Shown here piece after piece: positions 7,205 through 12,229 of a stretch of DNA of 64,000 nucleotides. The translations under genes were made by a program, and so were the position numbers. A model generated the notes under the pieces. The model was not told where the DNA came from and searched no databases. It saw only the letters and a list, made by a program, of their open reading frames with translations. The DNA lies in the NCBI GenBank assembly GCA_964431605.1, contig CAYSLH010000001.1, positions 22,719 through 86,718 on the forward strand. The letters run 5' to 3'. Each line of letters starts with the position of its first letter. Position 1 is the stretch's first letter. The DNA is from an uncultured Myxococcales bacterium. GTDB taxonomy: Bacteria > Myxococcota > B64-G9.

Positions 7205-7897
7205 GTGTGCGGCAGGTTTGCAATAGTGTCTCCAGCCAGCGAACTACAAAAGGCTTTCAAATTGGTACAAAAACCCGCAACCCCCAGTCCAAACTACAAC
7301 GCGGCTCCCGGACAGGATCTTTTCATTATACCGAATATCCTCCCCAGAGCCATCTCCATGTTCAAATGGGGCCTGGTTCCTGCACATTCAAAGGATGCCA
7401 GTATCGGTCGCAGACTCACAAACGCAAGGGCTGAGACTCTTTGGGAAAAAAATAGTTTCAAAAAGGCCATTCGTTCGAGACGATGTCTCGTTCCGGCAAA
7501 CGGATTTTACGAATGGAAAAAAACTACAGGTGGAAAAGTCCCCTTTTTCATACGTTTCAAAGACAAGAGACTCTTTGCTTTTGCAGGCTTGTGGGAGTAC
7601 TGGGAAAATGGCTCTCAACCTATGCACACTTTTACCATAATCACCACAGAGCCCAATGACCTGCTTGGCAAAATTCACAATCGAATGCCTGTCATCATGC
7701 AACCTGAGTTCTGGGATGTCTGGCTATCGGACAGAGAACTGTCACCCAACGACACCAGAGATTTGCTAAGGACCCTTGATGCAACCTTCCTGGAGGCTTT
7801 TGAAGTCTCGTCCCTGGTAAATTCCGTATCCAACAACGGCCCGGAGCTGATTCAAAAATCTAAGCCCCGACTCATGGAACAAACCTCGCTTTTCTGA
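7205..7897 (+). CDS. SOS-response-associated peptidase (SRAP / YedK / HMCES family, abasic-site processing)
   Basis: Starts MCGRF with the catalytic Cys2, has GLWEYW, and is about 230 aa. Confidence 0.85.
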   Translation: MCGRFAIVSPASELQKAFKLVQKPATPSPNYNAAPGQDLFIIPNILPRAISMFKWGLVPAHSKDASIGRRLTNARAETLWEKNSFKKAIRSRRCLVPANGFYEWKKTTGGKVPFFIRFKDKRLFAFAGLWEYWENGSQPMHTFTIITTEPNDLLGKIHNRMPVIMQPEFWDVWLSDRELSPNDTRDLLRTLDATFLEAFEVSSLVNSVSNNGPELIQKSKPRLMEQTSLF

Positions 7898-8060
7898 CCC
7901 TTATTAGAAGGTTCGAGTATAATTGCAGCCGAGATGAGTATTTCCGGCAATGCTTGACGAAATCTGTACGATAAGCGAATCTTTTGATGCTATCGAAAAT
8001 CACTACCGAGCTGATAATGATTATCGTCCCGCAACGATTAGCAAAAAAAGGAGAAAGCCC

Positions 8061-11000
8061 ATGAGCAGGTTATGTTGTATTTTGGTTGGCATCGTAACGT
8101 TATTGTCGACTTCCACTGATGTGGCTGCTCAAGTCTGTCCCGACCCCGGCTTGATTCAGTGTGGTGACAGTGTGTCCGGCGATACCTCAGCAGGTTCCAA
8201 CTTGAATTCAGCATATAGCTGCACCTCTGATTCTTATTCGGGACCCGATGCGAACTATCTTCTGATGATCGATCAATGTGTGGAGTTGACTCTCACATTG
8301 AACCCGGATTATGACGGAGCTCTTTTCGTCGTCCCCGACAGGATGGGTACGTGCAGAACAGACCAGTGCCTGACTGGTGCAGACAGTGGATTCTCGGGAG
8401 ATACCGAGACAATCCAGGCAACGGCCAGTCCAGGGTCTTACTTTGTTTCGGTGGATGGATATTTTTCTTGGAACTACGGTCCGTATACACTCGATGTCCA
8501 ATGTACGGCTCATCCGGAATGCGAAGACCTGGACTCAGATGGCTACTACGCAGACGACGGCATCTGTCCTTGCGGAAATGACTGTGTCGATACGGACGAG
8601 TCCATCAACCCGGCAGCCGAGGAAATCTGTGGAGATGGAATCGATCAGGACTGCGATGGTTCAGACTCCGAGTGCCCGGAATGTGCTCCCAATCAGACCC
8701 TATCCTGCGACACCAATTCCAGCACAGACATGGGCTCCCTAAGTAACAACATAAACTCCTGGTGTGGCTCTGGTTCAACCAACTGGAACGGCAACGAGGC
8801 TATATTCCAATTTTCTCCTCAATCGAGCGTGGGAGTGAGATTTTCCACTACGGAATCTGAAGATATCGACATCTTCGTGACCAGACCCTTTGCCGAAGGT
8901 GTCTGCAATCCACAAAATTGTATCACCGATTCCAAGCAAGACCAGGGTAATGAATCAGTGTCATTTTTTGCTTCTGCTGGTGATACCTACTATATCGCCG
9001 TGGATGGTTTTTATTCTGCAAGTCCCAACTTCGACTGGAACGCCAGCTGCTTTGATGAACAATGTAGTGCCGGACCTGAAATCTCCTGCGGCCAATCAAT
9101 CGATGGGGATACATCCACAGGTTCGAACAATCTGACGATTTATAATGGTATAACCTATGATTTTCCTGCACCGGACGATGTGCATACCTTTACAGCGAAT
9201 GGAGACATGCTGGTGTCTGTATCTATCACCTTCGGACAGGGAATCGATTTGGCTCTGTTGGTTCTTGAAGACAACGGAACCGGATGCATCCCGGAAAACC
9301 TCATCGCCGCCTCCGATCTGGTCAATGACAATATCCATGACGAGACCCTGTCTTTCCAGGCTGGTGCTGGTTCAACTTATTACATCGTGGTGGATGGATG
9401 GACCGACGGTGATCAAGGCCCTTACAGTATGAGCGTTCAATGCTCTGCCATATGTGCCAACGGGCTTGAAGACTGTAATGGTGTATGCGCCGATACATCC
9501 AGCGATGTGCAAAACTGCGGAGCTTGCGGTGTCTCTTGTTCCTTTGCCCATGGTCAACCTGCATGTGTCCAGGGAGAATGCTCTTTGGCTTCTTGCGATG
9601 ACGGATGGGAAGACTGCAACTCGGATCTTTCCGATGGATGCGAGACGCCCTTGAATACGAATGACCATTGTGGCTCATGCGATACGTCCTGCACATCTCC
9701 AGAATTTTGTTTCGACGGGTCTTGCACGGACCAATGTCCGGACGGTTTGACCAACTGTGATGGAAACTGCATTGATACTTCAAACGATGTGGCGAACTGT
9801 GGTTCTTGCTATAACGAATGTTCATTCGCTCACGCCCAGGCATCTTGCGTCCAGAACACTTGCACCATGGGATCATGCGACCCTGACTGGGGAGACTGCA
9901 ACCTGGATCAATCCGATGGATGCGAAAAGGATCTTTCCTCGGATCCTCTAAATTGTGGTCAGTGTAACAACCAGTGTAGCTCTCCCCTCGTGTGCAATGC
10001 CGGATCTTGTACGGACCAATGTCCGGACGGTTTGACCAACTGTGGTGGAGCATGTGTGGATACACTTTCCGACCTGTCCAACTGTGGAACATGTGGCAAT
10101 GTCTGCACTTTCGATAATGCTACCGGCGCTTGTCAGAACGGAACCTGTACGATCCAATCCTGTAATAGTGCTTGGGCCGACTGCGATTCCGACGCTCAAA
10201 CCGGTTGCGAGGTAGAACTGGGAACAAATGCAAATTGCACCGCCTGCGGAGACTCGTGCGTTTTCTCTAACGCCACGGGTCAATGCACTGAATCAGGTTG
10301 TCAAATGACAGGCTGCTCCGAGGGATTTGGAGACTGTGACGGACTCGAAGCAAACGGATGTGAAGCTCAGCTTGGTACCGACACAAACTGCTCCGCCTGT
10401 GGAGATTCATGCGCTTTTGCTCATGCAGATGGAAGCTGCGTACAGGGGAATTGCCAAATGGGAGATTGTTGGACAAACTTCGAAAACTGCAATTCTGACA
10501 CATCCGATGGGTGTGAGGCTGATCTTCGCTCTTCATCGAACTGTGGCTCCTGTGGCCACCAATGCCAGGCAACAGAATCTTGCGACCAGGGACAGTGTGT
10601 ATCTTCATGTCAGGACCTGGATGGCGACGGACACCTAGCTTCTTCTTGCGGCGGAGACGACTGCAACGACTATGATGCAAACTCCTATCCTGGTGCTCCC
10701 GAGACATGTGGTGACGGTGTTGATCAGGATTGCAACGGTACAGATCTTCCATGCGGCGACTGTCATGACAACGACTCAGACGGCCACCAGGACAAGGCAT
10801 GCGGCGGCGATGACTGTGATGACTCAGACGCTGCCGTTCATCCCGGCGCTTCGGAAATTTGCGGCGACGGAATAGACCAGGATTGCGATGGACAGGATAA
10901 ACCCTGTGGCGATTGTCATGACAACGACTCAGACGGCTACCAGGACCAGACTTGCGGCGGCAACGACTGTGATGACTCAAACGCTGCCGTTCATCCCGGT

Positions 11001-11318
11001 GCTTCGGAAATTTGCGGCGACGGAATAGACCAGGATTGCGATGGACAGGATAAACCCTGCCAATGTAACGACATGGACGGAGATGGCCATACTCCCATTT
11101 CCTGCGGTGGGCTCGACTGTGATGACACCAACCCATCTATTTATCCCGACGCAGAAGAAATATGCGGCGATGGTATCGATCAGGATTGCAATGGTGCGGA
11201 CATGCCATGCATGCCAGACGAAGGATGTGGATGTGCATCCACGTCCTCTTCATATCCATGGACTACGATCTTGCTTCTTGCCGGTATTTGGGAATACATT
11301 CGGCGCCGGAAGGGTTGA
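8061..11318 (+). CDS. Giant secreted cysteine-rich repeat protein with MYXO-CTERM sorting tail (3 PPC-like domains, 7 Cys-rich ~45 aa repeats, 5 MopE-like metal-binding repeats)
   Basis: AAGGAG RBS then ATG at 8061. Signal peptide MSRLCCILVGIVTLLSTSTDVAAQ. Three roughly 125 aa modules ending YYIAVDG / YYIVVDG (pre-peptidase C-terminal-like). Repeats CxDGxxDCNxDxSDGCE...NCGxCGxxC. CxDxDxDGxxxxxCGGDDCDDxxAxVHPGAxExCGDGIDQDCDG repeats. C-terminus DEGCGCASTSSSYPWTTILLLAGIWEYIRRRKG. Confidence 0.8.
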   Translation: MSRLCCILVGIVTLLSTSTDVAAQVCPDPGLIQCGDSVSGDTSAGSNLNSAYSCTSDSYSGPDANYLLMIDQCVELTLTLNPDYDGALFVVPDRMGTCRTDQCLTGADSGFSGDTETIQATASPGSYFVSVDGYFSWNYGPYTLDVQCTAHPECEDLDSDGYYADDGICPCGNDCVDTDESINPAAEEICGDGIDQDCDGSDSECPECAPNQTLSCDTNSSTDMGSLSNNINSWCGSGSTNWNGNEAIFQFSPQSSVGVRFSTTESEDIDIFVTRPFAEGVCNPQNCITDSKQDQGNESVSFFASAGDTYYIAVDGFYSASPNFDWNASCFDEQCSAGPEISCGQSIDGDTSTGSNNLTIYNGITYDFPAPDDVHTFTANGDMLVSVSITFGQGIDLALLVLEDNGTGCIPENLIAASDLVNDNIHDETLSFQAGAGSTYYIVVDGWTDGDQGPYSMSVQCSAICANGLEDCNGVCADTSSDVQNCGACGVSCSFAHGQPACVQGECSLASCDDGWEDCNSDLSDGCETPLNTNDHCGSCDTSCTSPEFCFDGSCTDQCPDGLTNCDGNCIDTSNDVANCGSCYNECSFAHAQASCVQNTCTMGSCDPDWGDCNLDQSDGCEKDLSSDPLNCGQCNNQCSSPLVCNAGSCTDQCPDGLTNCGGACVDTLSDLSNCGTCGNVCTFDNATGACQNGTCTIQSCNSAWADCDSDAQTGCEVELGTNANCTACGDSCVFSNATGQCTESGCQMTGCSEGFGDCDGLEANGCEAQLGTDTNCSACGDSCAFAHADGSCVQGNCQMGDCWTNFENCNSDTSDGCEADLRSSSNCGSCGHQCQATESCDQGQCVSSCQDLDGDGHLASSCGGDDCNDYDANSYPGAPETCGDGVDQDCNGTDLPCGDCHDNDSDGHQDKACGGDDCDDSDAAVHPGASEICGDGIDQDCDGQDKPCGDCHDNDSDGYQDQTCGGNDCDDSNAAVHPGASEICGDGIDQDCDGQDKPCQCNDMDGDGHTPISCGGLDCDDTNPSIYPDAEEICGDGIDQDCNGADMPCMPDEGCGCASTSSSYPWTTILLLAGIWEYIRRRKG
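10751..11056 (+). repeat. Near-perfect in-frame 153 bp tandem duplication (2 copies) encoding two MopE-like repeats
   Basis: Copy 1 at 10751-10903 and copy 2 at 10904-11056, with a handful of mismatches (GHQDKA vs GYQDQT; SDAAV vs SNAAV). Confidence 0.9.
11223..11315 (+). other. MYXO-CTERM-type C-terminal sorting signal (GCGC, hydrophobic helix, RRRKG)
   Basis: The last 31 codons of the giant protein match the tripartite MYXO-CTERM architecture. Confidence 0.7.
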
Positions 11319-11344
11319 TTGTAACGACCTGGAGGTAATTCAAC

Positions 11345-12229
11345 ATGAGATGGATCTTGAGCCTTGCACTCCTCATGACAACAGCCAGCCCGGCCCTTGC
11401 CTGGGACTTTATCGGTGTCAGACCCATGAGTATGGGTGGTGCACACCGTGCGTTGGTTACAGGAAACGATGCAATAATGCTGAATCCTGCCGGTATGAGC
11501 CTGTTCAAGAGATACTCCATGGAAGCGCAATACCTGGTCAAGCCAGACTGGTCCAATGAAGACGGTCCGGCAGAACACATATTCAGTACGGCCGTGGTAG
11601 ACAATCAAATCGCATCTTTTGCCACCGGCCTGGCATATACGAGGGTCGAGCGTGGAGACAGCAAAAAGGGTAACCGGTATGACATGGCTTTTTCCTATGC
11701 TTTGTCAAACAGTCTCATGTTCGGTACGAATATAAAATACCTGAATTACGATCGGGACGGTAAAAAAGATGCGGTGGATGCCGTTACCATAGACGTGGGC
11801 CTGTTGCTTCACTTCGACATTGGACTGAACCTAGGTGTAGTGGGATACAACCTGACAAACACGGCGGACTACACGGAACATCCAGTCTCCATGGCGGCGG
11901 CTGTCATGTATTCGCCCTTTCGCTCCCTTGAAATCGCCTTCGACTGGTTCATCAACTTTCAAAAACCATTGGATAGTACTGATCCAACCGGTGATAAAGA
12001 AACGGCTTATTCCTATCACTTTGGAGTAGAATATCTTCTTTTGGGACAATTTTTGCTAAGGGCCGGTTATGTCGTAGATCAGGCCAATCCCCTGTATGAC
12101 GATGAGCAGTACTGGACCGCGGGAGTAGGCTACATCAACAAGAGCATCGCCGTGGATTTCGGTTATCAAGGCTCTGTGAACAATAAGTGGAACAACACCT
12201 TCGGCGTTCTGATTAGATTGTTCATGTAG
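11345..12229 (+). CDS. Putative outer-membrane beta-barrel protein
   Basis: Signal peptide MRWILSLALLMTTASPALA with GGAGG RBS. Alternating hydrophobic beta-strand pattern throughout (YTAGVGYINKSIAVDFGYQGS) and an aromatic-rich C-terminus. Immediately downstream of the MYXO-CTERM protein. Confidence 0.5.
   Translation: MRWILSLALLMTTASPALAWDFIGVRPMSMGGAHRALVTGNDAIMLNPAGMSLFKRYSMEAQYLVKPDWSNEDGPAEHIFSTAVVDNQIASFATGLAYTRVERGDSKKGNRYDMAFSYALSNSLMFGTNIKYLNYDRDGKKDAVDAVTIDVGLLLHFDIGLNLGVVGYNLTNTADYTEHPVSMAAAVMYSPFRSLEIAFDWFINFQKPLDSTDPTGDKETAYSYHFGVEYLLLGQFLLRAGYVVDQANPLYDDEQYWTAGVGYINKSIAVDFGYQGSVNNKWNNTFGVLIRLFM

Follow-up and report, generated by a model that had tools for sequence, protein, structure and literature searches.

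Introduction

The closest described counterparts of the locus studied here come from several systems. [quoted passage not shown] One such protein, TraA of Myxococcus xanthus, combines a PA14-like variable head with a Cys-rich stalk and a MYXO-CTERM tail, and acts in outer membrane exchange together with the outer-membrane barrel protein TraB, which is encoded directly downstream in the same operon; an AlphaFold-predicted 1:1 complex places TraA on the TraB barrel (PMC3325183, PMC12045341). TraB also carries TSP3 repeats and an OmpA peptidoglycan-binding domain, reported to be necessary for exchange (PMC12045341). Further precedents are PorV and PorP-like barrels of the FadL family, which bind cargo sorting domains, and sprB, which adjoins sprF.

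Here we describe two neighbouring plus-strand genes in a 64-kb window (the whole stretch of 64,000 nucleotides analysed). Both BIG (8061-11318) and a 294-aa barrel ORF (11345-12229) are genuine, conserved genes that belong to an uncultured lineage of Myxococcota. With moderate confidence, we take the first to encode a sorted surface protein and the second a FadL/PorV-type barrel.

BIG encodes a conserved, Cys-rich probable surface protein

An open reading frame on the plus strand spans positions 7950-11318. An ATG at 8061, with AGGAGA 7 nt upstream, gives a 1085-aa Cys-rich MYXO-CTERM-type surface protein (8061-11318, stop codon included), assigned from the ORF and profile matches. Read from 8061, the protein starts straight with a signal peptide (residues 1-24, MSRLCCILVGIVTLLSTSTDVAAQ; 8061-8132, plus strand, read from the sequence), as do its orthologues, which have equivalents. 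The public gene call starts at 7950, 37 codons before 8061. Upstream of BIG, an intergenic promoter-like site, CTGACC-18-TATAAT (7894-7923, plus strand), agrees with the consensus at 10 of 12 positions, a consensus match only, and such sites are rarer in this region than in shuffles of it.

Orthologues of BIG share 35-74% identity and a common architecture. The close relatives all derive from Myxococcota MAGs, and all 16 orthologous loci come from MAGs labelled Myxococcota, 'Myxococcales' or 'Deltaproteobacteria'; source annotations name the proteins 'MYXO-CTERM domain-containing protein' or 'MopE-related protein'. We counted 116 Cys in BIG (10.7%) in place of the roughly 150 given in the earlier note: the ectodomain carries 112, and the signal peptide and the tail have two each. 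There are also 145 Asp, making the protein very acidic, and 15 His. At the family level, the earlier proposal was borne out: a surface protein that is secreted, heavily cross-linked by disulfides and equipped with a MYXO-CTERM tail.

Three collagen-binding-like heads on a Cys-rich stalk

The N-terminal part of BIG folds into three PPC/collagen-binding-like beta-sandwich heads (PPC-like domains had been proposed): head 1 (residues 26-148; 8136-8504), head 2 (residues 208-330; 8682-9050, with the best PPC stretch at 248-316) and head 3 (residues 335-461; 9063-9443), all on the plus strand. Each was delimited by self-alignment and an AF2 model (pLDDT 93.3 for residues 25-465), heads 1 and 3 also by structural matches. 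The heads (~123 aa each) are mutually homologous, with pairwise identities of 27-31% (E 1e-10 to 5e-19), and Pfam PPC (PF04151) scores 29.9 bits on BIG against a cutoff of 25.9. The head model matches the collagen-binding domains of ColG (5iku, E 3.5e-10) and a collagenase PPC domain (5sv5, TMt 0.79). Like the BIG heads, these collagenase domains (ColG s3a-s3b in 5iku) are beta-sandwiches in tandem copies; however, they lie C-terminal to a protease, whereas the BIG heads are N-terminal on a non-enzymatic surface protein and each is framed by conserved cysteines.

Between orthologues, the heads diverge more than any other part of BIG (25-42% identity versus 47-61% in the stalk). Divergence of this kind is what a TraA/TraB-like module for cell-cell recognition and outer membrane exchange might show, with the heads binding identical heads of sister cells and the barrel acting as TraB, and the overall layout is common to both systems: signal peptide, variable beta-rich head, Cys-rich stalk and MYXO-CTERM tail, followed by an outer-membrane barrel gene. 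We nevertheless regard this reading as quite unlikely. The divergence is of moderate degree and follows that of the proteins overall, so the heads do not resemble a case of allelic hypervariability. They are PPC-like, with no PA14-type domain, and the Cys modules differ from those of TraA (no TIGR04201 match). No sequence model ties BIG to TraA, profile searches detected no homology of BIG or the barrel to TraA or TraB, and the barrel is without the TSP3 repeats and OmpA domain of TraB.

Below the heads, the stalk (residues 462-850; 9444-10610, plus strand) had been described as seven 45-aa Cys modules. Instead, we find five 8-Cys modules beginning at residues 486, 580, 675, 726 and 777 (Cys span 42 aa, with a period of 51 aa wherever they are in tandem), three short 6-Cys modules at residues 537, 632 and 828, and linkers of the form CPDGLTNCxGxC. 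At the DNA level the stalk shows a 285-nt super-repeat. Curated models come close to it without reaching their cutoffs (NF041328, MXAN_6577-like, 94.7 bits against 100; Stig1, 21.8 against 24.1), and myxo_disulf_rpt (TIGR02232), suggested earlier as a check, gave no match on BIG at E<=0.1.

Acidic MopE-type repeats

PF11617 (Cu-binding_MopE) matches five stretches of BIG (140 bits). The expected count of five repeats is thus correct, and their placement is not: four are in tandem towards the C-terminus (residues 852-1045; 10614-11195, plus strand; DxDxDG...CGDGIDQDC motifs) and the fifth lies between heads 1 and 2 (residues 156-200; 8526-8660, plus strand), both found by Pfam and self-alignment. 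The C-terminal copies recur every 150-153 nt in the DNA; copies 2 and 3 share 95% identity. The acidic DxDxDG repeats probably bind calcium.

The Pfam match, the acidic and Cys-rich composition, and a FecCD/ABC/periplasmic-binding-protein importer close by would fit a surface protein that scavenges copper or another metal, like MopE of Methylococcus, with the barrel importing the captured metal. This is very unlikely. [quoted passage not shown] Only 15 His are present. The ectodomain Cys, even in number and regularly arranged in a knot-like way, are more in keeping with disulfides than with free thiols as ligands. FadL/PorV-type barrels are not known to be metal channels. The possible metal binding raised in the earlier note goes back to the Pfam name only, and copper binding is unsupported.

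A diverged MYXO-CTERM tail

BIG ends in a sorting tail (residues 1054-1085; 11220-11315, plus strand) composed of EGCGC, a 16-aa hydrophobic stretch with one Glu, and RRRKG (...GCGCASTSSSYPWTTILLLAGIWEYIRRRKG). Its TIGR03901 score, 17.3 bits within the full protein and 18.8 bits when the tail is scored by itself, falls slightly under the curated cutoff of 20, and this, together with the short, Glu-containing hydrophobic stretch, counts against our reading of BIG as a sorted protein. The assignment made earlier nonetheless holds for the family: TIGR03901 recognises 37 of 41 homologous tails (best E 5e-9), and orthologues and paralogues alike retain the Cys pair, the hydrophobic stretch and the RRR cluster. 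Valid MYXO-CTERM domains with lower scores exist, the requirement being the signature Cys, often two (Haft). BIG also shares with MYXO-CTERM proteins the signal peptide, the Cys-rich and MopE-type repeats and the Myxococcota lineage, and its clade differs in a conserved Glu-Tyr ahead of the RRR cluster. We read the BIG tail as a diverged MYXO-CTERM tail, with family membership computed here. No CPBP/myxosortase or T2SS genes are found within the 64-kb window, a further point against the sorted-protein reading.

A minimal FadL/PorV-PorQ superfamily barrel

The downstream gene (11345-12229, plus strand) starts 26 nt past the BIG stop codon, with GGAGG 8 nt 5' of its start, and encodes a 294-aa outer-membrane barrel protein assigned to the FadL/PorV-PorQ superfamily from its signal peptide, structure model, and structural and profile matches. 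In the model (pLDDT 89.7, pTM 0.84) an N-terminal plug segment (residues 21-55; 11405-11509) forms short helices before strand 1 and contains, by alignment, an NPAG motif at residues 47-50; fourteen predicted beta-strands follow (residues 57-293; 11513-12223), joined by short loops of at most 13 residues. Across the family N47, A49 and G50 are invariant and P48 is present in at least 90%. What had been called a beta-barrel-like protein with a signal peptide is thus confidently modelled as a minimal 14-stranded plugged barrel of this superfamily. Barrels of ~300 aa make up a broad family, which at E<=1e-10 has 564 representatives.

By sequence, PorV/PorQ and not FadL is the nearest curated family in all 38 orthologues. 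Compared with PorV/PorQ, however, the window barrel scores 66 bits, below the 90-bit cutoff, is ~50-100 residues shorter with minimal loops, and stands beside a cargo with a MYXO-CTERM tail and not a T9SS CTD; no T9SS components are seen within the 64-kb window. By structure, the top matches include FadL, TodX and a FadL homologue from P. aeruginosa, among them FadL structures with mutations in the NPA(G) motif. Many orthologues have precomputed PF03349 (FadL/Toluene_X) matches, and the window protein itself has none at E<=0.1. These structural and PF03349 matches, the family-invariant plug motif and the breadth of the family would suit an independent FadL-type channel or housekeeping outer-membrane protein, for example one whose plugged barrel opens laterally to take up hydrophobic compounds, with its position next to BIG due to inherited gene order and BIG needing no dedicated barrel. 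We give this possibility substantial weight, somewhat short of an even chance. The sequence models argue against it, as does the absence of long external loops, which in FadL form the substrate-capture groove and are a feature of the FadL/TodX/TbuX hydrophobic-substrate channels (PF03349).

Gene order links BIG and the barrel in part of the family

The 26-nt gap between the two genes contains no terminator-like site, the barrel gene has its own ribosome-binding site, and the two are probably co-transcribed. A BIG orthologue lies directly 5' of the barrel in 12 of 18 distinct orthologous loci, several of which are close relatives and non-independent; the pairing is tight, co-directional and held down to the deepest branch (54% barrel identity), which speaks against an independent channel. 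Gene order also supplies evidence for such a channel. The barrel occurs without BIG in the other six loci, next to an ankyrin-repeat gene in BIG's place (L012, L013), alone (L004/L016, L014, L018) or with ABC/FecCD genes only (L005/L020), and BIG-like paralogues at two further loci lack a barrel. Three barrel relatives of intermediate distance lie in the gene order RadC-barrel-ECF sigma, and no large sorted protein is encoded close by. Since the block from BIG through a metallophosphatase gene is collinear across these related genomes, the adjacency may be merely inherited. Remote relatives (Marinimicrobia, Elusimicrobiota, Desantisbacteria and others) point the other way: their barrel genes abut or overlap large genes, and 7 of 10 tested tails of the encoded proteins pass the T9SS type-A sorting model TIGR04183, a pairing with sorted cargo that an independent channel would not lead one to expect.

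The idea of a partner or anchor, voiced in the earlier note, remains plausible from the adjacency and from the TraA-TraB, PorV and SprF precedents, and is weakened by barrels without BIG and paralogues without barrels. By analogy with those systems, we tentatively suggest that the barrel is an outer-membrane docking or anchoring partner of BIG, a possible role that is still likelier than any other single specific one. Little cargo-binding surface would be available, because the external loops are all short.

A model for BIG at the cell surface

Following the sorting pathway of MYXO-CTERM tails (PMC11980579), BIG would be exported by Sec as a disulfide-rich cell-surface protein of receptor- or adhesin-like build, in which cysteine-knot modules and acidic DxDxDG repeats form a rigid stalk beneath the three heads. 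One tail cysteine (C1056 or C1058) may be lipidated, by analogy with M. xanthus TraA, and the hydrophobic and Arg-rich segment removed by a CPBP-family myxosortase encoded elsewhere. The T2SS would then deliver lipid-anchored BIG to the outer face of the outer membrane, where the barrel might dock or anchor it, as TraB does for TraA, PorV/PorQ for T9SS type-A cargo and SprF for SprB. Overall, BIG is a fairly ordinary surface protein of the myxobacterial type, built from three putative binding heads, a Cys-rich stalk and a predicted lipid-anchor sorting tail.

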